A stretch of 51,920 nucleotides of DNA, the filler included, from Catajapyx aquilonaris (Eukaryota): NCBI GenBank assembly GCA_000934665.2. It is 2 parts of 2 records of this genome, joined end to end, with 100 filler letters (N's around TTAATTAATTAA, not from the genome) between each part and the next. Parts side by side here need not be neighbours in the genome. Positions count along the whole stretch, not along the records: positions 1 to 25,805 come from JYFJ02005297.1; 1 more part is not named here. The stretch is one strand, 5' to 3'. This document shows, one piece after another, positions 88 through 22,694 of this stretch (positions are counted from its first letter, which is position 1; the number at the start of each line of letters is the position of its first letter). The position numbers and the translations under genes are program-made. The notes under the pieces were generated by a model. It worked only from the letters and a program-made list of their open reading frames with translations. It was not told where the DNA came from and did no database searches.

Positions 88-624
88 TTGCTACCACGAA
101 TACCACGAATAAATTTTAAAAACATTGTTTGGAGGATAGAGCACTATGTGAGTGATCCATTAAGTGGTATTTCAATTTTCAGCTTTCATCCGTTCTGCTT
201 TTGTAGCACCAATTGGGTCCTAATGTTCTCATTGGCTGTTTGTCGCCATTTTTGTCGATATTTTAAAACTAAAAATTTTTACTTGTTTCTTATTGGGAAC
301 ATGTTCAGAAAATGCAATAGGAACTGACATTGCGTTAAAAAATTCTTCTCAGGTCTCAGGAGGATATTAGTTTTGCAAGTCCGATCAGGCTACGTGGCCA
401 CTTTCCGCGAGTTTTTGAGCATCCTGTATATATATTTTTAAATTTTTTTTTTTGTATATACCCCATGCTAGGGCCGAACGGCCCTCTTAGGGAAGTGGGA
501 ATACCACCATATGGAACCATGTGTATAATTTACAATTATTTAGTTGGTCCACGATTAGGGACGGTAACACCCTGTATTAAGTTATTCCCATCTGGCATGC
601 TGTATATAATTGGTCACTTTTCAG

Positions 625-733
625 AATGCCAATGATGGGCCACATGAACCCAATGGCACCACCTCCCGGAATGGGTGCATCACCTTCAGCATCCCAGCCA
701 CCAAACAAGCCTCTGTTTCCAGCTGTAGCTGCG
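625..733 (+). CDS. ZNF207: ZNF207/BuGZ internal coding exon (MPMMGHMNPMAPPPGMGASPSASQPPNKPLFPAVAA); upstream exons lie outside the window
   Basis: Acceptor cacttttcag ends at 624; donor GTGAGT at 734 (phase 0). Pro/Met-rich with a KPLFP motif as in BuGZ; in frame with the downstream exons. Confidence 0.88.
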
Positions 734-1590
734 GTGAGTTATTCATTTAATGCTAAGGTAAGACTTTTGAATTTTTTTTCTATACGTGTGCATGTCACAT
801 ATATCTGCAAGGTCACATTTTTCAGTCAAAGTGGGAAAGTACATGTATTGCTACATGTAATGAGTGAAATCTGTCTGAAGCTGAGTTGTTCTGCTTAGAA
901 AAAATATGTGAAAAAGGAACGATGTCCCATTTGATAAGTAAGATGGAGTGGTGCGGCTGTAATGCCTGCACCTAAGGATAGAAACTGTAGCAAAGTGCAG
1001 CCATGAATAAGATACAGGTCAGTTTGCAGGTAGGGCTTGAAAAACCAGGGAAGTGTAATTCTGGAATCAGACTGTCTTGTCTCAGAAGTGGAGTCTTGTG
1101 TGGTGATGTGTTTCCTGGTCCTCCCATGAATTTTCCCAGTCAAATTATGCTTATGCCCAATGTGGTGGCAGTAGGCACAGCTGTTGTTGAAGGGTACAAT
1201 GGTTTCGAACTTGGGGAGGAAAATGGGGAGGGGGGCAGGTGTTAAAGTCAACACTCCTTGTTTTATCAGGGTAGAAAGCCACAAGTTCATGGTTAGTGAG
1301 TGGTTTCTTGTCTGCAACCCAACTGCCATAGGCATGGACTTCAGGCTCACTTTCATCCTTCCAATTTATTAACATGAGAGAAGGTCATTTTTCTGACCCA
1401 TCAAAAATTGAGCAAATACAGCCTCTCGGAATGCTGTAAAATTAGCTGTGATAAATATTCCACAGAAAATTTCTGATGTAATGTCTCCATTCATATGGGA
1501 CACATGCAGCCACAGACGAGTTATAGAGAAATAGAGATTATTTGATATTTGAAGTCATCTAGCCTGAGATTGCAGTGCAAGTTAGCACTA

Positions 1591-2589
1591 CAGTAGGAAT
1601 CAGAACATTATGAACTTTAAAAAAATCGTAGAGCTGTAAATTGCAAGAGTGCAAGGGTTTTGGGCTGGTCATGGTAGGAGGGGGTCAGAGAAGTGAGACC
1701 CTAATCTACCCTCCTTGGGCTTATAGCATATGAGGTAGTGACCTTCTGAATTTATCCGATAACTTTTTTAAAGACGCATCTTTTGCATTTTTGACAGCAA
1801 ATATGGATTCTAAGGTGTTGAAAACCTATCTTTTCATACCTGATTCATACCAGCCATGTCAAAAGTAGATCTAGCATGATAACGTCAACAAGTTTTCATA
1901 ATATACACGTGGGTTTTCGTGGGCCTGGTTGTGACATGCCTGGTACGAATCGAGTATGAAAAGATAGGTTTTCGACACCTTAGAATGCATATTTGCTGTC
2001 AAAAATGCAAAAAGGTGCGTCCTTAAAAACGTTATCAGATTATTTTAAAAGGTCCACTTCCCCACCTGCTATAAGCCTGAGGAGGATAGATTAGGAAGGG
2101 TCTCACTTATCTGACCCCCTCCTACTGTGGGCAGCCCAAACCATGGTTATAGAAGACTCAGGTTAGGTCACTCCCCACCCACCCCCTGCCGAGGGGTTTT
2201 GCAGCGGGTGCTCACCTGAGAGCGCCATGAGACATTTCCCAGAGCAATTATGTGGCGACCCTACCGGACTAGGCTGAACTTTATAGGTACGAATAAGGGA
2301 AGCGCTACATGCTGGCCGAACATGGCCGCCAGCGGCCATGTTGGGCCCCCCAATGTAGCCCTCCCCTTTCGTACCTATAAAGTTCAGCCTAGTCCGGTAG
2401 GGTCGCCACATAATTTCTCTGGGAAATGTCTCATGGCGCTCTCAGGTGAGCACCCGCTGCAAAACCCCTCGGCAGGCGATAAGCCCAGAATTTAGTATAA
2501 GTGTCCGGGGGCTGGCCCAAACCATGGCACTGTTGCAATTTACAGCTCTACCTATTTTTTTTAAGTTCATCATGTTCTGATTCCTACAT
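1591..2589. mobile_element. Old foldback/MITE with long inverted arms (CAGTAGGAATCAGAAC…), interrupted in its right arm by a younger element
   Basis: 1591-1860 matches the reverse complement of 1932-2141 plus 2523-2589; TA on the left flank. Confidence 0.8.
2142..2514. mobile_element. Young palindromic non-autonomous element (arms 2185-2476); second copy, inverted, at about 49835-50227
   Basis: Near-perfect inverted arms; flanked by a direct repeat GCCCAAAC(CATGG) at 2134 and 2515. Confidence 0.85.
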
Positions 2590-2799
2590 TATAACCAGTC
2601 ATGTATGGGTTGAAAGTTTCTGTGTGATAGTAATTTATGTATATAAAAAAATATTGTAAGATACGTATGATTGTAACTCCTTTATTATTGGTTATAGATA
2701 GGGTAGGTTCTTCCTACACTGATGCTGCAGTCTCGAACTACATACTTGATACAAGGTTTTGTCGGTGAATTTTGTGAAGACTTATTTTTCTCTCATTAG

Positions 2800-2906
2800 A
2801 ATACAACATCTGCATCCTCAACACCTGTGGGAGCAGATTTCAAACCAATATCATCTTCAGGAGCAACTTCCATTGGACCTATGAAACCAACGTTTCCAGC
2901 ATACAG
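2800..2906 (+). CDS. ZNF207: ZNF207/BuGZ coding exon (NTTSASSTPVGADFKPISSSGATSIGPMKPTFPAY)
   Basis: Acceptor tttttctctcattag; donor AG|GTAGG (phase 2). Contains PVGADFKP and KPTFPAY motifs typical of ZNF207. Confidence 0.9.
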
Positions 2907-3147
2907 GTAGGATATAACATCTATTCAAGTTCAAGTAGATTTAACTGAGTAGGGTTTTGACCGTAAAGGCAGTCCATCCATCTGGGGTGGTTTTGAGATA
3001 ATCAAGTGAAACATAACTTACAACTAAAGTAACTCTTCTTACCCTCCTGAATTTTGAAATTTTTTGGATTTTCTAATTCTGCTTGGCCTATAGTGTTGAG
3101 CAAACATCACCTCCGCTACTAATTTCCATGTTAGCAGGGTCAAAATA

Positions 3148-3436
3148 CAGCCAAAATGTGATGTTCTGAAGCCACAACACCTGCATCCGGTCGCGAGTCG
3201 CCGGTCTCGGCTGCCCTGTCGCGGTCGCCTTTCATTGCGTCTGTAGCTTTCTCGTGTGCCGCAAAGGAGAAGGGTCATCTTGGAGTCCTGGCTCTCCATT
3301 ATTATAATCACCTGTGACTTCAAAGCGTGCGAGATGACCCTTCTCCTTCACACCACCGGAGAGAGCTACAGACGCGGTGAAAGTCAACCGCAACCGGATG
3401 CAGGTGTTGTGGCTTCGGAACATCGCATTTTGGCTG
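3148..3436. mobile_element. MITE with TA target duplication (Tc1/mariner-type ends)
   Basis: TIR CAGCCAAAATG…CATTTTGGCTG, flanked by TA on both sides. Confidence 0.8.
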
Positions 3437-3438
3437 TA

Positions 3439-3992
3439 CAGTAAAACTTATATAAGTCGAATCTCCATGGGACCGGGGGAAAACTTCCGAGTTATAGAAG
3501 ATTAAAGTTAGAGAAGTTTGGATTTTTAAAAGCACAGCACTCTATAGGGAAGCCTACCTTCATATCCAGCGACGAAAGGTGTTCAAAACTTAAAAATAAC
3601 TGTCACTATCACACTTACAATGTTCCTAATTGTTTTGTTGTAAAAGAAATCTCCATTATGGACATATGCCTACACTTAGATTCAAGGATTCAATTGTCAC
3701 AATCGAGTCAAACACTTGATTCGGTACATCTGGTAGACGGAGATCAGGAAATTGAGCCTTTCTGTACATGTGGCTTACGTACTCTCGACCCTTCGTCTAG
3801 GAAATGAGAAAATTTTCCGTACTCGGCAACATGAACGTCAGGTTGGGAGACTGAAAATGCATTGATATCCCATCGTAAGGCCCTCCCTGCACTTCGAGTT
3901 ATGGAGCACTTCGAGGTATAGAAATTCGAGTTAGGGAAGTTTATTTCCTAGTATTTTACATTGTGACCAACCAAGCTCATAATTTTATTCGA
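3439..3992 (+). mobile_element. pogo/Tigger-like MITE, right end missing; same family as 4990-5651
   Basis: Starts TA|CAGTAAAACTT; direct repeat of 4990-5557. Confidence 0.8.
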
Positions 3993-4989
3993 CCTTGTGT
4001 GCCAGCCCCAGAGGGGGTGTCGACGTGTAGTCGAGGAAGCAAAATATTATATTTTTCATAAACTTTCGTGAACGTTGTATCAACGTTATAGTTACATCTG
4101 CCCCGGGCACCAAATGCCCTTGGTACGCCACTGCCACAGGGTCCGCTGGTGTAATAGGCCAAAGTAACTTCACCTTTTGGCCCAGACATTACTAAATGAG
4201 CTGACAAAATATAATACAAAACGACGCTGCAAAAGTGCATCATTCAGGCTTGTAGGACCAGGTCTTCACTTCACTTTATCTTTTCGCTTACGGAATATTC
4301 CGGAAGCCACACAATGGCTCACGGCCGCCGCTGGATTCCAGCCCTGAGCCAAGTGGTGTGGGTTCCGGAATCGCGAATACTGGGCCTCGTCCAACCACAA
4401 GATGAGGTGCAGATCCGGACCTCTCCCCGACAGCAGGACGTGGATTTAAACAAGCTTCCGAACAATATAATAACATTATTTTTTGGATTATTTGTCTGGG
4501 AATTGTTTCGAGTCAAACTGCTGCCATCCCTGTCCCCGGGAAATCAGCCATGTTGAGCTAGCTAGCAAGTTGTGGCGACCCCCGAGCTGGCCGCAACGGG
4601 TGGGCGGGAGGCTAGCAAACTACCAGGTCTCATCTTGCTAGGCGACGTTGAAAATGGGAAAGCTAGGTGAGGGGGGGGGGGGGTTGACGTCACACACCCC
4701 CTAGCTCCGCCCCAGTGCAGCCTACCAGGACGTTGAAAATGAGCAAAGAACCCAGGCATCCACCTACCGCCAGGTGCGCTCCCTCCGATCTTGGATGCCA
4801 ATTCATGCAGCGACTCAAGATTCTATGTGAAGTTCAGTCAGCTCACTGGTCTTGCCCGCAGTGTACAGTCTTTACTGACTAAGCATTTTCATTCATATAC
4901 ATCACGGCTTTTCCCAAATATTGGGGTGCCAGCGGATAATGAGGAGGATGTCCTCATTACCCTCATGGGTAAATCGGTGTATACAAATA

Positions 4990-5651
4990 CAGTGAAACTT
5001 CTATAAGTCGAATCTCCATTGGACCGGGAAAAAACTTCGAGTTATAGAAGATTCGAGTTAGAGAAGTTTGGATTTTTAAAGCACATAACTCTATAAGGAA
5101 GCCTACATTTATATCCAATGACGAAAGGTGTTCAAAACTTGAAAATAACTGTCACTATCACACTTACAATGTTCCTCGTTGTTTTGTTGTAAAAAAATCT
5201 CCGTAATGGACATTTGCCTACTTTATCTCTCTACTTACATTCAAGGATCCAATTGTAACAATCGAGTCAAACACTTCTTTCGGTACGTCTGGCAGACGGA
5301 GGTCAGGAAATTGACCCTTTCTGTACATGTGGCCTACTCTCGACCCTTCGACTAGGTTACTAGGAAATGAGACAATTTTCCGTACTCGCCAACGTGAACT
5401 TCGACTTAGAGAGACTGAAAATGCATTGATATCTCATCGTAAGGCCCTGCCTGCACTTCGAGTTATGGAGAACTTCGAGTTATAGAAATTCGAGTTAGGG
5501 AAGTTTATTTCCTATTCTTTTACATTGTGACCAACCAAGCTCATCATTTTATTCGACTTATAGAGAACTTCGACTTAAGGAAGTTCGACTTAAGGAAGTT
5601 CGACTTAAGGAAGTTCGACTTAAGGAAGTTCGACTTATAGAAGTTTTACTG
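4990..5651 (+). mobile_element. Complete pogo/Tigger-like MITE with a subterminal 15-bp tandem repeat (AAGTTCGACTTAAGG, about 5 copies)
   Basis: TA|CAGTGAAACTTCTATAAGTCGAA … TTCGACTTATAGAAGTTTTACTG|TA. Confidence 0.85.
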
Positions 5652-5739
5652 TATATGGATTTGATCCTGAGTGATCTGACAGCTGCCCTAAAGTGTGGAA
5701 AGTCTCCAGTTTTTCTGAAGGAGCTGCCTCACACTTTAA

Positions 5740-6139
5740 AGGGACACTCCACTCAAAATACAAGTTGGCCCCCAAAAATCGGGGAAAAAATCCTGATTCC
5801 GAATGTGCAATCGGTTTTTTTCTACGCCCAACGATAACACGGAAAATCATATATCTACACACGTCGTCTGCTAAGAAGGGCGATACAACAGCATCCCACG
5901 GCAAACCGGAGAAGTATAGCGCGCGCACAGTGACAACTGCCGCGCCAGGCACGCCTGGTCTAGTTCCGCCCGGTTCCACTCTGGTGGCGTCGCCACCTGC
6001 ACCACCTGCCCCGCGTGCGGTTTTCGAACAACACACTGGCCTTACCGTTCGTCTCTAAGAAAAACTGCTTATACCCTCGGAATCAGGATTTTTTGCCCGA
6101 TTTTTAGAACCCAACTTGTATTTTGAGTGGAGTGTCCCT
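5740..6139. mobile_element. Kolobok-like MITE
   Basis: TTAA|AGGGACACTCCACTCAAAATACAAG … CTTGTATTTTGAGTGGAGTGTCCCT|TTAA. A TTAA duplication with RR…YY ends fits Kolobok rather than piggyBac. Confidence 0.75.
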
Positions 6140-7475
6140 TTAAACAGGCATCTGATGCCTCTCCTGTATGTGTTCACTTTTCAATTTATGCATTGCAAAG
6201 GTGTCATTCATGGGACTGGGCTGACTTCAAAGGCGCTTTGTGGCAATGAACTAGGACAGGAACATTAGTGGACACCCAGTGAGATTTTATCACCATGGCA
6301 TCTCAGCTTGCCACAACATTAAGTTGCTATTTGTACCTGGAGAAGATATCGAGAGCCATTCCAATGAACTTAATGCTCACTGAGAAAACAAAACCCATTC
6401 CACACATGCAACACATCCATTGTGCATAGTGTTGGTGAATATGGCTTGTCAGTGTTGCTGAAGAGACTGACTGTGTAGAAGAATTCACACATTGATCACT
6501 GATATGAATTTCTTGTGTTAAAATCAAGGGAAAAAGACAGAGTTTATTTTGATTTAATCATGTCAAGAGGTCTTTTCATTTCAAATGGTAACATCTGTGG
6601 TAAACATACTGATGAAGTTCCTTGTCTTCTACTGCCCAAGATAATTTTTGTACTTATGGGTCAAATTGTCATTATTTTGCTGTTAACGATTTTTAAATGA
6701 ACACTTATTAAAATGTTACCACCTCTAGTCAGTTCATTGATGTGTGTGTGTGTTTAGCCTGGTCCGTAAAGGCACTGTTTGGTAGGCTGGGTTACATTCA
6801 TCATGGCGTAGTCCCTTGTTGGGGTAGCCATCGATAACCAGGTCATACAAGCTAGCCATCTCAATGGACATATAGATAAGAATCCTCTGGTGACTGGTCA
6901 GGTGTCCTGTTTTGCTTCTATACCTCCTGAAGTGATAAACCAGCTCATAAACACTACTTGTGAAAATATTCTGAACGTTGCATTGGCTGAAAATCGTACG
7001 CCTTGGTTCGTTACCGCGGGTTTTGTTGCGCTACAATGCAAAGATAGCAGATACTGATACGGCAAGGTGACCGATGGATTCCGCACACTTCCTCCTCTAG
7101 AGAATCTGTATACTGTCCTCACAACCACTTAGAATTCGCAGAGTTATGATGCAATGTAACTAGGTGCAGAAATGCGTGCTCTCAAAATGTGGGTTTGTTA
7201 CTGTGTTTGTTTTTGCTCCTTTGGCACTGTTGAATGATATATTTGTGTTGGAATGATGGAAAAATGCAGCACGCTCGACGTTGAACTCGATGGGGAAAAA
7301 TAATCCTGAAAAGTTTTTCACAGGCATGGGAAAATCGCAAAGAAAGTAAGAAAATTTCGGTCGAACGTTGGTTCATTACCCGCAGAAATGCCCTTGACTA
7401 ATTTCCATCTTGTGGTGGCTGTTAATAACTCAGTAAAGATGTACAATAACCAAGGGCACCTTTTGTCATTCACAG

Positions 7476-7605
7476 TAACGCTGGTGCTGGAGGTACTACT
7501 ACCACAACTCAGTCATCAAGTGGTGATGGAGGGTCAAAACCAGCCCTCATCAACACAACCGGAGCATCAAGTAAAATAATCCACCCACAGGAAGACATTT
7601 CATTG
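7476..7605 (+). CDS. ZNF207: ZNF207/BuGZ coding exon with first half of the GLEBS motif (…GASSKIIHPQEDISL)
   Basis: Acceptor ttttgtcattcacag; phase 2 completes AG+T = Ser. Donor GTAAGC at 7606 (phase 0). IIHPxEDISL is the GLEBS N-half. Confidence 0.92.
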
Positions 7606-8033
7606 GTAAGCTTTCTTCCCCTTCTTCTCACACACATGGTGATTGCAATGGCAAGCTTTTGGGAAAATCTTTCTTGCCGTCTTCCTCTTGATGGGCATTC
7701 GCACATATTGTGACTTGGTAGTAGTAACATTTGGTGGTTGCGGCCCTCTTCTATGTTCATTGTTTCTCCAGAAATCATGGTGATAGTACTGTCATTTGTT
7801 TGGTATTGTATGATTCCTGTCCTTGGGTATCCATCATCCCTCCCTTTTGACTTGGCTGATGGTTTGTTTGGCTTCTTGGTGGGTACTTATGCATGCGGTC
7901 ACGTGCAGCTTCTTGTCGCAGCTGACCCACAGTCAAATATTCTGAGATGAGGAAGCGGGACTTGGAAATGGGGATCAGTAGTTTTCTCCTTTAATGCTTC
8001 TACCTGTTCTTAACACCCACTTTCTACACATAG

Positions 8034-8117
8034 GAAGAAAGACGTGCGAAGATGCCTAAATACCAACCTCGCACTGTTAAAACTGTGGAGACAGTAAGCA
8101 CCTCCACTAATACAGAA
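8034..8117 (+). CDS. ZNF207: Alternative (duplicated) BuGZ exon carrying a second copy of the GLEBS C-half: EERRAKMPKYQPRTVKTVETVSTSTNTE
   Basis: Acceptor ctttctacacatag ends at 8033; phase-0 donors GTAAGC (8094) and GTAAGT (8118). The first 11 codons encode the same peptide as exon 8327, with only synonymous differences. Confidence 0.8.
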
Positions 8118-8326
8118 GTAAGTAAAGGTGTTGGGGAGGCTTGCTAAATGTTTCTTTGGTCTTGTGGGCAAACTGAGACACTGGGCAGCTGAGAGTAAGG
8201 TAGGAATGACTGTTACTACATGTATGGAGTGTGTGTTTTGCGTGTGCACATTATTTTTTGACAGGGACGACACTGATAGCTGCCAGCACAATTTTCAACA
8301 TTTTCTTTTTCTTGGTGTTCTAATAG

Positions 8327-8636
8327 GAAGAGCGCCGAGCCAAGATGCCAAAGTACCAGCGTCCTCTACCACCTTCAGCTGTTGCGGCAGCTGCAGCAGC
8401 AGCAGCAGCTGCTGCTGCCTCAGCAGGATCAGTGGCTGTAGTCATGCCCCCTGCTGTGAGTTCAGTGGCAGCCATGATGCCACCAGTGTCAGCAGCACCT
8501 TTGATGCGGCATGCCATGCCTCCTGGTGCCCTAGCACAAGTTATCCCTGGTCCTCATTTGCATGCAGGGCCTCCAGGACCAGGGCTCATTCACGGAGGTA
8601 ACATGATGCGACCCCCACCCATGGGTTTACCACCAG
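8327..8636 (+). CDS. ZNF207: ZNF207/BuGZ coding exon: GLEBS C-half EERRAKMPKYQ, 12-Ala tract, Pro/Met-rich low-complexity tail
   Basis: Acceptor after ttttctttttcttggtgttctaatag; donor CAG|GTAAAT at 8637 (phase 1). A second phase-1 donor (GAG|GTAAC) is present at 8598. Confidence 0.9.
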
Positions 8637-9465
8637 GTAAATTGCAGCAGGAATGGACTCCTATTCCCAACTTACATTTGTTTCAACCAAATAAGTTAGG
8701 TACTGTCATTTGGATCGCATGTGCATGATAGATTAGAATTGTGCATGTTGACTGAAGAGTGGAGTAAAGTGATAATCATTTGAAGAGCCACTGTCACCTC
8801 ATCAAAAAAAAAATTTGAGATAGTACTCGGATTATGCCCACAAGTGACTTGCCATAGTGAAAGTATTGTCAATCTAGTTGAAATATAGGGTGTATGGGCT
8901 AGGTTATATATCCTTGTTCACTGTGCAAAGGGTTTGAATGATCATATGGAACATGTGAATAAAGGTTTAGGTCAGCGGTTGCCAACCTCTATGTTATCAT
9001 GGAACACTCTTTCCAATACAAAGTCTGTTCCATTTTTAAAACCATTATACTGCAGCAAGTACTTCAGTTGACCAGACTTAGAGTCAGGCATTAACTGAAG
9101 ATCTTCATAAAACTTAACTTCTCATATCGAGGAAATTATGGAAAGCAAGACAAGATCATTTCTTTTAGATATTCTCACAGCCAACAGTAGCACAAACATG
9201 AGGCACAGCAGTTGAGGTCTACCAGCCACCAAAGCATAGCCAGGCAATAGCTACATGTACCCAGTAGCATTTGATCTATTATGAAATTCTCTCCCCCCCC
9301 CCCCCTTTCTCTCCCCTCCTCCCTCACCAATTCAAGAGGCTGTGAAATTTTAAAAATTACATCTCTTATACTGCTGCATCCAGAAGGATATTGAATTTTA
9401 CTTAGGAAGGATTATATGAATATTTTAAAAAAAATTCAAGATTGGTGACAGTGGGTTTTGAAATA

Positions 9466-10172
9466 CAGGGTCATCGAAAAAGAATGTCCCATTTTTTAAA
9501 ACCCTAAAACTCGAAAACTTGTAGACATATGTCGAAAGTTTGAAATGTTAAGAAATGTGTAAAGTTTTGGTCTTACCATAGTTCGTTTCGATATGAGCTC
9601 CATTTGTCGCTCAAAAAATGTAAATAGGGTAATTGGTGTCAGGCCTAACCCGCTCAGGCATGTCTGGCGTTACCGTTGAAATCTTTTCCCGTAGGTGCTG
9701 GAGATGCTGAATCTTTTCACCATACATGCATTTCCACAAAAATGTTCATTGGGGTAAAATCTGGGCTTCTATAGAGGGGCTAAGCATTGGGAAACTTCTC
9801 ATTGAAGACGTCTCACACTGGGAGGCTGAACAAATGAAATTTTTCTACAGCAGGTTTATTTCATGGATGAGGCGACTTTTTTATTTGAACCATCAAGAAC
9901 AATGTCTGTGGTGTGAATATCAGAGATGTCCAGCACCTACATGATAGGATTACGATGGTAACTCCAAATGTAATTGAGCTGGTTGGGCTCGAGACCATAT
10001 ACCGCCTTTTAAATCTCCCAAGCGACAAATGAAGCACATATCGAAACGAACTAAGCTGAAACGAAAACTTTAGACTTTCGTTAGTATTTCAAAACTTAAA
10101 TCATTCATATATGTGTGCAAGTTTTCGAGTTATAGGGTTTTTAAAATGTGACATTCTGTTTTGATGACCCTG
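9466..10172. mobile_element. Tc1/mariner-derived MITE; inverted copy at 23123-23834
   Basis: TIR CAGGGTCATCGAAAAAGAATGTCCCA; internal sequence shared with the 23123 copy. Confidence 0.8.
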
Positions 10173-11120
10173 TGGAACATATTTTTGGCAGAAATAAAAT
10201 TACATAATCCTGGCATACTCAATTGAGAAAATACAATGGTTGTAACTGTCACAGTGGGGGTGGTATTGGTATGAGGCAAAAGATAGATACTATATTGAAT
10301 GACAGTTACATTAAAAATTGTCTCCATCATTTGTCTGATCGATTACAATATGGCTGTGGCCATGCTTGCAGGAAATTGAAGAGGGACATACACAAAATTG
10401 TTTGAAGATTCAAGTCCATTCCCATTATAGACTCGGGGATAGGGAATATGATTTTAATGTGGAAATGATGCATTGTCTTCTCTGTGTGCATCAGCACATC
10501 AACCCTTTTTGACATGGAAACTTTTACTTGCAATATTGCAGTATTTTAAATTGTAGCCAACTTTGTGAGAAGAGAGAATCATCATCATCGTCAAAATGAT
10601 ATGATAATAATAGCAGCAGCAGTAGCAGAGGTTCGCGTTTTTTTCTGTTTTAAGGTCTAGTGTGAATCGATATTATTCGAGCACAAAATAAGGGTGGGTT
10701 TTTTTGTCCCCCGTTAAGTCTCTGCCTGCAGACTGCTACTGACAGTCAGGATTCTCCCGTCAGCTTCGTCATGGGTTACTATGGCTATTAGCTTGTTGAC
10801 AGTGGTACTGTTAACTAGCAGTAGGACGAAAAACCAACCCTAAGTTTTTGTACATGTAATGTTATTATTCCCATGAGGAATTGATTCATTAGTTTCCATC
10901 CATGCTGACCACACTGACATGATCAATTATTGATAATTTGGGATATTACATCGTGATCAGGGTATAATGGCAAGTGCAAGTTACCTGCTAATCTAGAAGA
11001 ACATGATGCTTTCTGTGTCATGTTTAAGAGACTGTCTCTACGGCCTGCTATGTAATGACCCAACATCAAATGTGTCTTCCTCGCAACAGCATTATGTAAC
11101 TTATGGATGGCCTGTATGTA

Positions 11121-11445
11121 CAGTCCGTTAAGCCAAAGAACGACATGCCATCACATTCAGCATGCCTCCACCTGGCTCTTCCTTCTTATCATGTCCCTGA
11201 ATCGCTCTGCAAGCATGCCACTGTTCATGCTCATAAAACACGGCCGATGTGACATCGTGTCATTCTTTGGCTTAAACGACTGTACGGTCGGTTAAAGAAG
11301 TATCTTTTCACAACAGGCCAAGAAATTAGCCTTCAGCAGAGGTGCTGCCTAGGGGAATGTGAGTCATTGCATCAGAGGGAGGCAGCACCTCTGATGGAGG
11401 CTAATTTCTTGGTCTGGTGTGGAAAGATGCTCCTTTAACCGACTG
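11121..11445. mobile_element. Two adjacent small palindromic MITEs (11121-11282 and 11285-11445) sharing one TA
   Basis: Each element has its own inverted ends flanked by TA. Confidence 0.75.
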
Positions 11446-11614
11446 TACACCAAGGGTGTTTGGTAGATTACAATTCTTGGTATGTGATGTAAGCTCACCA
11501 CAGCAGCCATGCTGCACTTGGAAGCATGCTTTCATCCAGACAGGCATCCTCTTAAAGAGGAGCAGAACTGTCCAGACTCTATTGGGCTCTTGCCCCGTTC
11601 TGTTCTCGTTGCAG

Positions 11615-11712
11615 CCCTCCCGCATGGGCCTATTCCACACTACGGCCCTCCTCCCATGGCCTTCCAAGGACATCCAATGCTGGCTCCGATGATGCCTCCA
11701 CGTTTCAGATGA
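11615..11712 (+). CDS. ZNF207: ZNF207/BuGZ terminal coding exon (ALPHGPIPHYGPPPMAFQGHPMLAPMMPPRFR*)
   Basis: Acceptor ttctgttctcgttgcag; G+CC = Ala keeps the frame; TGA at 11710-11712. Confidence 0.88.
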
Positions 11713-11737
11713 TGAGTGCAGTTCATCTAGACGTCAC

Positions 11738-11774
11738 CAGTCAGCCAGCCAGTCAGTCAGCCAGCCAGCCAGCC
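11738..11774 (+). repeat. (AGCC/AGTC)n microsatellite just after the ZNF207 stop codon
   Basis: Visible tandem tetramers. Confidence 0.85.
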
Positions 11775-14700
11775 CGCCCATCAGCCCACTTGAAGATTGT
11801 GTTTGCTAATGGGATGCTAATGGGATGAGGGAAACCTTATCCCAGTCAGTAGGTACCTTGTTTACTTGGTTCCTTATTTCCATTCCCCTTCCCTTCTACT
11901 CACACGTATGCCAGATCCCCACCTATACCACCCATGCACATCACCCCACTTGTATATCCCAGGGTTTTGGTGACTGATTCTGACATGGATTTAGTGTGTA
12001 GGTATAGTGTGCATATTGTTGGTGGACAAGAGAGGATATGACTTCTATCAGGGCTGCTTCATAATGGCTACTGTTATCTTTTTTTGATATTAATCTGTAT
12101 TTTGTGTAGGGGCTGTGCATCAAGGTAAGAGAAAATATTTAGAGGGGGATATGATGGATCACCTGGACACATGTCAGTAGCCTTTTTTGAGATTATTTGG
12201 ATTTTTATGAGGAACATTTTAATATAGGGTGTTGACATTATTGCCACTGGAAGTGCTTCACACTTAGTGTGGGCCATTGGCAGGTCTGCTGTCTGCCTAC
12301 CTCTCACATTGTTGTGATATCGAGCCCAAAATCACTGAATAAAGTGATATTTCAGAATGAGAAATATGACTGCAGGAATTGTGATACCAGAGTAGAATTG
12401 GTATAAGGGCAAACAGTCCATTCTGAATTTTGTCAAACAATTATACTTGAAAACTTCGAAACTTTGAAACCTTTGAAACCTTTTTTGTTAATATATTTTT
12501 GATAATTGTTTGCAAATGACATAGTTGCTACCAGAAGTCATGAAGATCTCTCTCTTGGGCTAGTTTGTCTTGGACGCACTTCTAGGGTTGGTGGGAAAGT
12601 GAGAAAAGGAAGGTGGATTTGAGGCAGAGCAATTCCTTTGAAAATGATATGCACATGTCTTGTTGTAGTTGCCAGGTGAAGAAAAAATATGAATTTAAAT
12701 AATACAGGGAGAGACTCCCTAACTCCCATTAGTTGTGCAGAACTGAAATTTGGTATCAGCTATTTGCTGATTAATCGCTAGAGGGCTTTCATGTGTCATC
12801 TTCTGTTGTCTCTTCTTCACCCACTGCCTTTTTGTAGAATTATTTATGTAATTTTTTTGTCAACTTTTCAATACAAGGAGACTTACGATCTTTCAGTAAT
12901 TCAATCATATAAAGTGAAGCCTTGCTTACTGCCCATCATAATGTAATACTAGTGACTCAGCATTTTCATTAGATTGACGCTAGATTCATTTTTAGTAGGA
13001 TGGTAATGCCTAGCAGGCTGGGTTTCCCCTCCTAAAGCCCTTGACAAGAAGGTGGACCCTGAACGATTCCTTTGCTTTTTGTTAGGTTGGTGACTGCAAC
13101 CAGGTGGTCCATCATATCCCATTGCCCCAACATTTAGAATAAGTTAGCAACATCAGTTGGCGTCCTTTATAATTGTTTATATTGTATTAAAACATAACAG
13201 TGGCAAAATGTAATTCACTGAAGAAGGGTAACGAGAGACCGTCATGGTTTAGGTAAGCTTTTTGTCACCTCAAAGAGTAAGTACACTGCAGGAGTACAGT
13301 GAGTAATGCAGGATGTGTAAATGGAGCCAGAAGTATAATTAGTGATACTAGACCTTTTAAAACCCATAAACTCAATAGCCATCTCATTTTCCCTGCTTTG
13401 TAAAACAATTTGATTATTTTTTTTATCCATTGGATTGATTTTACCCAAGATTTTACCACTGCAAGCAGCAAGGGTTGGGTTATCTATCAGGTTTTGGTAG
13501 CCTTTGGACCTTGCAGATGATGATGATGATGATGATGATGGAGTTTATTCTGTAATTGGCTGAACTGGTAATCTTGGTGGTTGAATTTGACAGTTCCGAA
13601 TTATGAACCATTGTCATACAGCCATCAAGAGGATGCAGGCATAACCCTTCCTCAAAAGAATTGACTCATATTGGAAAAAACATCATACACTAGTCAAAAA
13701 GCATGTTTCTTTAATGGCATGGGCACACGTTTTCACGCCTTCACGAAACATGCATTAGGACAGTGAACAGACATGTCTTCTTCAAGGTGGCGGAATTTCT
13801 TTTAAGTTAAGTTGGGGTAGTAAAAGAATCACACACACATAGGAAGTCTGCCCTCTCAAACCTGGTATCCTGTTGACTAGGGTTCAGCAAGCCACTGGAG
13901 CACTCCATCCTTTTCTGAAGGCATCCCACTGAGGTATTAAACATCTGATATGATAACAACACAGTTGCAAGCAAATGACCTCATGGGCTATTTTTATCAT
14001 TCAACTGAAAGCTATCAGCAGTGAGTAACCATGGAGGCTGATAGGAAAGCTTATTGGAGCATCCCCAATAGCATGTTGCTAATAGATGTATCAGGGCATT
14101 ACCGAAAAAAGGAAATCAGGAAATCGTTTTGTTTTTTTTTCATCTACTAATTCTCTATTAGCGGACTACGTCTTTCAGATGGGATTTTCACATAAGCTCT
14201 TTGGTTTACATGGTGACTGCTGTTGACAGCAGCTAATGTTAGCAGAAGGACAAATAGATCACATCCAATATTTTGTTGAGGGAATTAAGAAGGGATTATG
14301 GCTTTCTCTCAAGGTCTGCGCTTATATTTCTCACTTCATTTGACATTCTGGATATCTTTTCCATTGCTGTATATAACTATAATAAATGGTATGCACAAAC
14401 CTGGGCACTCCAAAGGTGTGGTCGTGAAGTGAAGCAGAGTTGCAGCCATTGCAATGATGAGAGGGTCTAAGAGATGAGAGAGCTAAGTCTTGTGTGGCCT
14501 TGGGGGTGTCCAAAGATTGCTTTTGTGCATTGAAATCACTTGTAATTACTGTGAAGGGTTTCCTATGCACAGTGTCATCTTGTTGTCTGTCACCTGTTGC
14601 AAGTTTGAGTTTGTGGGGGAAATTACAGTGTCGTTAAGGGGCATGGAAAAATGATGGTATTATCCCATTTGGCATTTAGCTTACAGAAATTGCCCGGAGT

Positions 14701-20370: not shown

Positions 20371-21222
20371 GGATGTGGGGCAGCTTCACGCGTCCAGATG
20401 GCGCTGCCTGTCGGTGTACCGTTGCAAGTCTTCTCCGATTTATCCCACAACAATGCGAATTAATTTTGGCCATGACACGTGTGCAAAAGTGGCAGGATAC
20501 TCCACTGCATGCGGCTCATTTACTCCCGAGGTACTTCATTGTGACATTAATTTGCTCGAGTCATTCGATGGCAATGCTGTTTGTTGCGAGAGTTGGATCG
20601 AGCAGTTAACTGCTCGAGGCTTAGTGGCTGCCAATATCATTAATGGTTGTATGAGGCCCGTCTGGTTCGCCAGCGACGGTACTCTCTTCCTCGAGCGGTC
20701 CTCGGACCTGACTCGCATTTCTTGGTTGGACGGGGTGTTTGGGAGAATATCCCACCCCCGTCCCTGGGTTGGACCCGGCATTGCAGTACAGCCGGGGCCA
20801 GCCCTCCTCTCCCCCACCCTTCTCACCCACCCCTACCTTGCAATCCCACACCTTCCTCTCCTACCCCCGGCTGCCAAGGCTCGACTCAGACAGAGCCATA
20901 CAAGCTGGGTAACCCTTCCTACCAACCAACCAACNACATCATCCTCATCCTACCCAGCCCCACCGGCTAAGGAGGGTCAATAACACTCCTGGCCCCTGGC
21001 TGCCAAGGCTCAATACGAAAGAGCCATACAAGCCAGGCATTTCCCTAAAAACCAACCAACCAAGGCTGCTTCGGGCTGCTTCCTTCTGGGCATGGTTCCT
21101 GGAAAGAAGAGAGTACACGTCACTAAAAGTGCAATTTATGTCCAACAGTACATCAACAAAGGGTTCCTGGACCAATATTACAAACTTTTAGACTTTTTCT
21201 CTTGAAAAAAAAGTCTTCTAGA

Positions 21223-22694
21223 ATGCCTAGTGTCAATTGACACTGCGCACCTTGGCTGAAAATGCAGTACAAGCCTGCAAAAGAAGCAGGGGCCAAAATG
21301 AAGATGAGATTGTCGGCGAATATGTGTGTAGCATCCCAAACCTTTTTGCAAATGATTACGTGGCGTAGCTGTTCTGAGGCTGTGTTCAATGTTGGAGGAA
21401 GACTTCAACATTGCTAGTGCTTTTCATGACAAGTGCACTAAGATTATGAGGAATGGTCATCTTTCACTCTCAGCAAATTGGTATTGCCGGTTGATTTCCA
21501 GTCTCCATGTCATGAGCGATTTACAAGTGCTTCATGACGTCAGCAATGATGACGAATCAATTGACATTGACAGATTTCTTCCATTCCCCAAGCTGAACAA
21601 GCTGGTGTCAATTCAAATTCCCCGAACGTTTTGCCACCATCTCGTGACAACAATAGTGGAAAACTGTCCACTTCTGGAAAAGATTGATAGTGGCCAAATT
21701 AATGTATATTGATGTCTGGCAAAACCGGATTTTTCTGACCTAGGCATTTGCAACCATCTGATAAAAATCAGAACCACTCCATTGATCAATTCCAACTGTG
21801 GAATAGTCCTCCTGGAGAAACTTCCCAGATTAGAAATATTGGAGTTGCATGATGTGCAGGATGTTCTCGCATTATGCGAACACCCTTACCTTTGTTTGAA
21901 GGACTTTTTCGCACCCCTTAATGCAAAAAAATCTGAAATTCTTGAAAAGATTGCAACCTACTTCCCAAACCTGGATAGTCTGAACCTAAAATTGAATGGA
22001 GTTGCAGATTTAAGTCCAGTAAACAAATTTACCAACCTCAAGAGTTTACAGCTTAAACTCGGTTCAGCTTCCAGCCTACTCTGCTTGTTGGACAATTGCA
22101 TGAATCAGCTGTCCAGCTTGACTTTGTCTTTTGGGTGGACTCGATTCCATATTTATTCCGGAAAAAAATGTATCCTTCCCACAAATACACTGCCTTGTAT
22201 TATATCCATGCAGTGGAGTCAACTTGGCAGCCATTGGGGAGATTTTCCCGAGCCTAAAATCTTTTGAGGCTCAAGTTAACGACTTCACCCAATTGCATCA
22301 GTACCCAACTCCTCGTGCTTTTCAAGAGATAGAAAGTTTTGTTGTGTATAACACCATGCCGCAAAAGTATGTCAGACATATTATATCCAGTAATCAGTTG
22401 AGGAACCTCCACTTGAAGAACGGTGCAGCAACTGTTTCATATGGATACAACAGATTTTTTCAAGATATAACACTGGAAGCTTTGCAAACACTGAGAGTTG
22501 ATGATGACTTGATGACAAGGGAAGTCATTCCAGTGATTTTGGGGTTAAGTTCTCCTTGTTTAAAATATGTGTTGTTGATTGGCAAACGTCTCATTCTCTC
22601 AAAGAGACAATGTGAAGTATTGTGGAACCAGTTAAAATCATATGACATGAGTTTGGTCATTCGTGGTTCACGGACAAAGTTCAAATATGTATAG
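21223..22694 (+). pseudogene. Disrupted single-exon leucine-rich-repeat gene with an N-terminal BC-box-like motif
   Basis: MP[fs]CQLTLRTLAENAV start. LRR-like units: NCPLLEKID, KLPRLEILEL, YFPNLDSLNL, FTNLKSLQL, IFPSLKSF, LEALQTLRV. Stops at 21366, 21375 and 21710; frameshifts near 21230, 21385 and 22130. Confidence 0.75.

Follow-up and report, generated by a model that had tools for sequence, protein, structure and literature searches.

The window analysed here, a stretch of 51,920 nucleotides (filler included) from the genome of Catajapyx aquilonaris, carries at positions 600-11,712 of the + strand the C-terminal half of a BuGZ/ZNF207 gene. Its six exons (Table 1) join into one open frame of 282 amino acids that ends in ...MMPPRFR and a stop, and along its whole length this spliced model can be aligned with residues 188-449 of P0005, a ZNF207 of cockroach type (56% identity, E 3e-90). 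The KPLFP, KPTFPAY and INTTGASSKIIHPQEDISL blocks and the ...MMPPRFR end are collinear with those of the named ZNF207 proteins, and the KPTFPAY block, which lies in the exon at 2800-2906, is invariant among the homologues. On this alignment we take the gene to be the BuGZ/ZNF207 orthologue, which agrees with the identity given by the first-pass annotation of this DNA. A Pfam scan of four exon translations returned no family at E up to 1, and in a PDB sequence search the sole match was the N-terminal zinc-finger domain 6j0d, with no solved structure of a BuGZ GLEBS motif found. The AlphaFold2 model of P0005 (mean pLDDT 39.2, pTM 0.16) was too poor for use; the only helix in the region, of two turns, lies at 310-316 in the first copy of the motif discussed below, and there is none at the second.

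The third of the mapped exons closes with GAA GAC ATT TCA TTG/GTAAGC, so that a phase-0 intron follows EDISL and splits the GLEBS motif, as had been described earlier, with the cut lying just before the invariant EE doublet. Behind this intron the starts at 8034 and 8327 (here exons A and B) both encode EERRAKMPKYQ directly after an AG acceptor, and the duplication seen in the first pass is plain in the sequence. Beyond that first description, exon A proves to be 84 nt long, in frame and provided with a consensus donor, while exon B has 310 nt, which is not a multiple of three. The RNA contig described below reaches 172 nt further upstream than its first mapped piece (624), and the 3' UTR extends past 12000.

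Table 1. Mapped features of the BuGZ/ZNF207 locus of Catajapyx aquilonaris (positions in the window; joints written as last position > next position)
Feature	Coordinates	Strand	Basis
Upstream coding exon, ...MPMMGHMNPMAPPPG...NKPLFPAVAA	624..733	+	Contig piece 624-732; joint 732>2799, GT..AG (cut +1); aligned to relatives; 5' limit as mapped
Coding exon, ...VGADFKPISSSGATSIGPMKPTFPAY	2800..2906	+	Contig piece 2799-2902; joints 732>2799 and 2902>7472, GT..AG (cut +4)
Exon with first half of GLEBS motif, ending ...SSKIIHPQEDISL	7476..7605	+	Sequence; donor TTG/GTAAGC; contig piece 7472-7604
Exon A, 84 nt, in frame, encoding EERRAKMPKYQPRTVKTVETVSTSTNTE	8034..8117	+	AG at 8032-8033; donor GAA/GTAAGT (8118); joints 7604>8033 and 8117>8327
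Motif copy 1, EERRAKMPKYQ, GAAGAAAGACGTGCGAAGATGCCTAAATACCAA	8034..8066	+	Gives the EE doublet that completes EDISL/EE in the observed mRNA
Exon B, 310 nt, EERRAKMPKYQRPLPPSAV(A)n...NMMRPPPMGLPP, Ala/Pro/Met-rich tail, shorter donor	8327..8636	+	AG at 8325-8326; donor CAG/GTAAAT; contig piece with 0 mismatches; aligned to relatives
Motif copy 2, EERRAKMPKYQ, GAAGAGCGCCGAGCCAAGATGCCAAAGTACCAG	8327..8359	+	Observed mRNA places it 28 residues downstream of copy 1; would complete GLEBS without exon A
Optional 63-nt in-frame extension of exon B, KLQQEWTPIPNLHLFQPNKL	8637..8699	+	Second donor TAG/GTACTG; open frame
Last coding segment, (V)LVAALPHGPIPHYGPPPMAFQGHPMLAPMMPPRFR, stop at 11710-11712	11603..11712	+	Joints land at 11602/11603; 1,827-nt contig record starts there

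Transcribed exons and their order

The locus was found in one public sequencing run (X1, library type not on record) in the form of assembled contigs, which were mapped on positions 500-12,000. The contigs were taken as RNA-derived because they are without the GT..AG introns and because they join two alternative donors to one acceptor; a processed retrocopy as their source is the weaker alternative. A contig of 913 nt (depth 10.4) covers 624-732, 2799-2902, 7472-7604 and 8327-8636, with 0 mismatches in these pieces, and between the last two it holds 85 further letters, which correspond to the joints 7604>8033 and 8117>8327, both GT..AG (shorter side 85 letters). Since both joints lie in one contig, the mRNA holds exons A and B in series, and its order is EDISL-EERRAKMPKYQ-PRTVKTVETVSTSTNTE-EERRAKMPKYQ-tail. 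The junction 7605>8034, which the first-pass annotation had proposed to look for, is thus present in a spliced contig. No joint 7605>8327, the mark of exon A skipping, is listed in X1, and as assembled contigs drop rare variants, this run is uninformative on skipping.

By its structure exon A could serve as a cassette: its length is divisible by three, it is bounded by AG and GTAAGT sites, and the junction formed on its removal stays in frame (EDISL/EERRAKMPKYQ). Its acceptor tract holds 13 pyrimidines in 20 positions, which equals the richness of the neighbouring constitutive EDISL exon. For this species the contig shows its inclusion; forms that skip the equivalent insert are known only as annotated isoforms, from two mayflies and a crayfish (see below). 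Exon A is a genuine, expressed and conserved coding exon, and the remark made in the first pass that the ORF track misses it was right.

It had been suggested that the two exons are alternatives, the two excluding each other or exon A providing an alternative end, and that the gene would switch between a short Thr/Ser tail and the long Ala/Pro/Met tail. Both exons do have an AG acceptor straight before the same 11 codons, and retention of the intron behind exon A would run the frame into a stop 10 codons later (...TNTEVSKGVGEAC, then stop), but exon A itself is stop-free, has a strong consensus donor and is joined to exon B in the spliced contig by the GT..AG joint 8117>8327. In addition, exons A and B cannot replace each other, since the phase left by 84 nt is not that left by 310 nt; both copies stand in series within one protein in 11/11 polyneopteran homologues covering the region, and the isoform pairs of relatives have one C-terminus. 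We consider the tail switch almost certainly wrong, and any isoform difference is a 28-residue internal insert with the same C-terminus on either side of the choice. What survives of the suggestion that each exon can be spliced to EDISL, always completing the GLEBS motif and changing the C-terminus, is its first part, as in the mayfly and crayfish isoforms either exon completes the motif; the C-terminus is common.

The class of mutually exclusive tandem exons was also considered for this pair and rejected. Exons of that class never occur together, whereas here 7604>8033 and 8117>8327 are found in the same contig and the exons are co-included, and they are similar in length and phase, whereas here 84 nt stand against 310 nt (373 nt with the extension), the phases differ and only the first 33 nt are homologous.

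The 913-nt contig ends at 8636 and has two continuations, one running from 8636 to 11603 at depth 3 and the other through the donor at 8699 to 11603 at depth 10.2; the corresponding joints for the ends of exon B are 8635>11602 (depth 3) and 8698>11602 (depth 10.2). In Periplaneta X2 an unrelated insert of 28 residues occupies the same junction as the 63-nt extension here. With both donors the RNA contigs join the last coding segment at 11603, directly after TG (...CCCCGTTCTG/TTCTCGTTGCAG), and the canonical AG at 11613-11614, 12 nt downstream of 11603, is unused in them. The start at 11603 adds VLVA, which aligns without a gap to GLIG of the relatives (GLIGALPPG...PRFR). Either the intron is a true GT..TG intron, or position 11601 carries an A/T polymorphism or an error of the assembly. 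Human genes with TG acceptors are on record (PMC2374985).

Several other features of the window were recorded. The intronic repeats at 2036-2419 and 4724-5875 are very abundant in X1 (mean word depth 348 and 89-196, respectively), with many mismatches, and are presumably transcribed transposable elements. The ORFs 2163-2441 (-) and 2220-2495 (+) encode nearly the same peptide, which makes them an inverted pair of one element. At about 5585-5645 lies a short tandem repeat with a 15-nt unit, which appears in the ORF list as (RKFDL)n / (KEVRL)n. Further downstream, at 21713-22694 (+), two overlapping long open frames have the look of leucine-rich repeats (...LEILELHDVQDV...LNLKLNGVADLSPV...) and may be a neighbouring gene, and an ORF near 20,900 contains an X, that is, an ambiguous assembly base.

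The duplicated half of the GLEBS motif

The 33-nt starts of exons A and B differ at 8 of 33 bases, all of them synonymous: seven are third positions and one is the first position of AGA/CGC, and both starts translate to EERRAKMPKYQ. Our recount gave the same figures as the first pass, including the end of the similarity at the motif, since identity of the flanks is at random level (17/60 bases upstream, 15/51 downstream). With about 6 synonymous sites in the 33 nt, synonymous divergence is saturated. When 8 substitutions were placed at random, the peptide was kept in 0 of 300,000 placements, and a transition-biased model likewise gave 0/300,000. A degenerate back-translation of EERRAKMPKYQ, run against the whole 51,920-base window with as many as 3 mismatches permitted, returned only these two sites, with 0 in 100 shuffles. 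These counts, together with the conservation in relatives, uphold the earlier proposal of purifying selection, under which both copies stand. The best-supported reading of the comparison is that the first 11 codons of exon A go back to an old duplication of the codons that open exon B.

Within the GLEBS motif of BuGZ it is the EE doublet that is ultra-conserved and critical for binding (PMC11917139, PMC9147866), and PMC9147866 reports that the EE>AA mutation of BuGZ abolishes Bub3 binding. The same source describes the doublet as contacting the top face of the Bub3/Rae1 propeller in the GLEBS motifs of Bub1, BubR1/Mad3 and Nup98, a feature that BuGZ has in common with them. In the present gene the doublet follows directly after the [ED]D[ILV]S[LM] anchor, with DISLEERRA formed at the junctions both with exon A (+A) and without it (-A), and anchor plus EE are present in 168 of 260 homologues. 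The second copy in the +A form is no complete GLEBS motif: the sequence around its EE is TNTEEERRA, with no DISL half, and it reads as an orphan half-motif. The ELM expression for GLEBS, as quoted in an excerpt of PMC11917139, matches neither the +A nor the -A form and none of the anchor-bearing homologues (0/168); the BuGZ-type motif, unlike the GLEBS motif defined by ELM, lies outside this expression, which on these counts does not describe motifs of BuGZ type.

Homologues in insects and decapods

With the 43-aa EDISL exon as query, 13 proteins were obtained, 11 of them covering the region; these are insect ZNF207 proteins, named from Gryllus, Anabrus, Periplaneta, Diploptera, Zootermopsis, Coptotermes and Bacillus rossius, with four unnamed. 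Exon B as a homologue query gave 0 matches among 585 candidates. The tandem layout is found in 11/11 (cricket, katydid, cockroach, termite and stick insect) and takes the form EDISL-EE[VIFY]R[AS][KR]..KY.R..PVKTVDSSTSTPQPQVE-[ED][ED]RR..MP[RS][YF], with the segment between the copies reading PVKTVDSSTST... in the 11 proteins and a degenerate second copy in P0011 and P0012. Of the remaining two proteins, one (P0010) shows just one copy, and the other is a fragment that runs into the intron. Exon A aligns to EE[VI]RAKLPKYQRxxPVKTVDSSTSTPQPQVE of the 11 proteins; the polyneopteran ZNF207 thus has the same exon, with its VKTV[DE]..STST signature, in the same tandem layout as here, and about 56% identity in the C-terminal half. 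Periplaneta X2 (P0008) differs from P0005 in that VE is absent before the second copy (...PQPQ/EERRA as against ...PQPQVE/EERRA), which looks like a 6-nt alternative choice of the splice site that ends the exon A equivalent.

The polyneopteran copies have drifted apart (EE[VI]RAKLPKYQ vs E[ED]RRAxMPRYQ), while here both read EERRAKMPKYQ, which is ancestral-looking. As those copies differ at about 4 of 11 residues (EEVRAKLPKYQ vs EERRAVMPRYQ) and the present ones are identical, it could be argued that exons A and B underwent gene conversion long ago, with drift at synonymous sites thereafter, and owe their identity to it. We find this very unlikely, as synonymous sites are saturated, the flanks are unrelated and no recent tract is visible, and both copies match the single-copy outgroups (EERRAAMPKYQ in Ladona, EERRAEMPKYK in P0010), so that retention of the ancestral state explains the identity better than conversion. 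If true, conversion would alter the history of the exon only and not its function.

The wider sample combined a profile search (120 arthropod proteins among the matches listed) with a second library of 139 unnamed proteins, 260 being examined in all. An EDISL-type anchor was present in 168/260, and a second E[ED][RK]R copy followed it by 26-78 residues in 15 with the strict pattern and in 23 with the loose one. The carriers of a second copy belong to Orthoptera, Blattodea, Hemiptera (true bugs, planthopper), a louse (weak), mayflies and decapods; these orders were checked for four species. By eye, the dragonfly, spider, horseshoe-crab and millipede entries have one copy, and the beetle and wasp entries keep the first copy and have a second without EE.

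In the mayfly Neocloeon triangulifer the only difference between X1 and X2 is an insert of 72 residues right after EDISL, which starts with EERRATLPQYRP and is followed by EERRALMPRYQ. The entries X1 and X2 of Cloeon dipterum differ by the same 72-aa insert, and EERRA[LM]M[PS]RYQ stands after the insert in both mayflies. Two proteins of Cherax quadricarinatus differ at the same point by 81 residues, beginning with EEKRAGMPRYQ and followed by EERRMKMARYN, and Procambarus clarkii X6 has a 37-residue version. From these isoform pairs the insert of mayflies and crayfish reads as an annotated cassette exon, the GLEBS motif being completed by whichever exon follows EDISL. The likeness to the present gene extends to the insert point, the insert's own EE-R-A...Y half, the EERR...RY copy behind it and the common C-terminus. 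The differences are that the inserts have 72, 81 and 37 residues, with tails that cannot be aligned with the 28-residue exon here, and that in mayflies and crayfish both isoforms are annotated (as automatic predictions), while here only the inclusion form is seen.

From their position and first ~11 residues we infer a single origin for the inserts of decapods, mayflies, Hemiptera and Polyneoptera. The alternative is a repeated, independent duplication of the insert among these arthropod groups, to which the unalignable tails would lend themselves, as the homology consists of position and those ~11 residues. As a separate observation, three hymenopteran predictions (P0044 of Harpegnathos, P0054 of Cotesia and P0041 of Eretmocerus) have EDLSL followed by a tail without EE, or a motif cut short, and are either GLEBS-less isoforms or gene-model errors.

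A probable cassette exon within the Bub3-binding motif

We consider it probable that exon A is a cassette exon of old, pancrustacean origin with which the Bub3 motif stays intact. To hypothesize, the tail exon would have had its first 11 codons duplicated, an event that gave rise to, or went along with, an in-frame exon in the phase-0 intron separating ...DISL from EE in the GLEBS core. In the included form, which is the one observed, exon A completes the core with its first 11 residues and adds a 17-residue spacer rich in Thr, Ser and Val (with TVKTVETVSTSTNTE), and the orphan copy of exon B and the common Ala/Pro/Met tail follow. Since both exons open with the same EE half-motif, the GLEBS motif would be intact with or without exon A, the doublet being supplied by A on inclusion and by B on skipping, and the 28-residue insert is predicted to be placed directly behind the Bub3 contact without loss of binding. 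Both starts would be held constant by selection that keeps the Bub3 site whole in either splice form, and this role as stand-ins would explain why the peptides are identical in spite of saturated synonymous sites. As some relatives skip the equivalent insert and copy 2 has stayed conserved, exon A may well be left out at some stage or in some tissue here too. The insert may have an effect on Bub3 binding.

It seems unlikely, on the other hand, that exon A is constitutive in this lineage and that copy 2 is kept for a job of its own, such as weak docking of Bub3/Rae1 or a part in the low-complexity tail. This would agree with X1, which shows only the inclusion form, with the 11/11 polyneopteran proteins that have both copies, none being without exon A, and with the perfect GTAAGT donor and an acceptor tract (13/20 pyrimidines) like that of the constitutive EDISL exon. 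However, isoforms that skip the equivalent insert are annotated in two mayflies and a crayfish, and the loss of EE from the second copy in beetles and wasps suggests that copy 2 is dispensable once the first is always present. The TNTE before the second EE is, moreover, unlike the conserved DISL half, which speaks against a separate job for this copy.

A further step would be to see in the cassette a regulated module of the Bub3 site, in place since the ancestor of insects and decapods, whose inclusion adds a phosphorylatable Thr/Ser spacer and a second EE half-site and thereby changes the affinity for Bub3 or engages two WD40 partners (Bub3 and Rae1, or two Bub3). Under this proposal a short linear motif could accommodate an insertion for the sole reason that the inserted exon comes with its own half of the motif. 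We hold this stronger version to be decidedly unlikely as it stands.

Alternative exons are already known in this family, and the exon itself is not new, as related genomes annotate it, some of them with both isoforms. The mammalian ZNF207 cassette exons 6 and 9 (isoforms A, B and C) are in frame and switch in differentiation, as described in excerpts of PMC6197280 and PMC8892232, and the excerpted text mentions neither a copy of a GLEBS half nor a position within the motif for them. In a full-text search of the literature no description of a duplicated GLEBS half or of a cassette exon inside the motif was found. Mammalian exon 9 presumably encodes a Ser/Thr-rich stretch upstream of the GLEBS motif.

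Among general systems, splicing after tandem exon duplication, as outlined in parts of PMC8373072 and PMC3303723, resembles the present case in that the duplication is local, both copies are under selection at the protein level and they are adjacent. The system in PMC2394523 has a tandem duplicate exon spliced in series to give a repeated short helical motif, which corresponds to the use in series here; there, though, a whole exon is duplicated and alternative splicing is counter-selected, whereas here half a motif is duplicated and the exon is a cassette in relatives.

The known function of BuGZ is unchanged by these findings. They establish as real an exon of 84 nt that ORF-based tracks overlook, and they show that the available RNA uses a non-AG acceptor at the last intron of the gene. 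It is rare for an alternative exon to interrupt a short linear binding motif, since the motif would be destroyed by the insertion. An inserted exon that carries its own copy of the interrupted half would let the motif survive both splice choices, and the insert would then enter the middle of the binding site. The cassette reading predicts two natural forms of BuGZ in many arthropods, differing only just behind the EE doublet that contacts Bub3, and these two forms would be a ready-made test of how the flank of the motif affects Bub3 binding or condensation.
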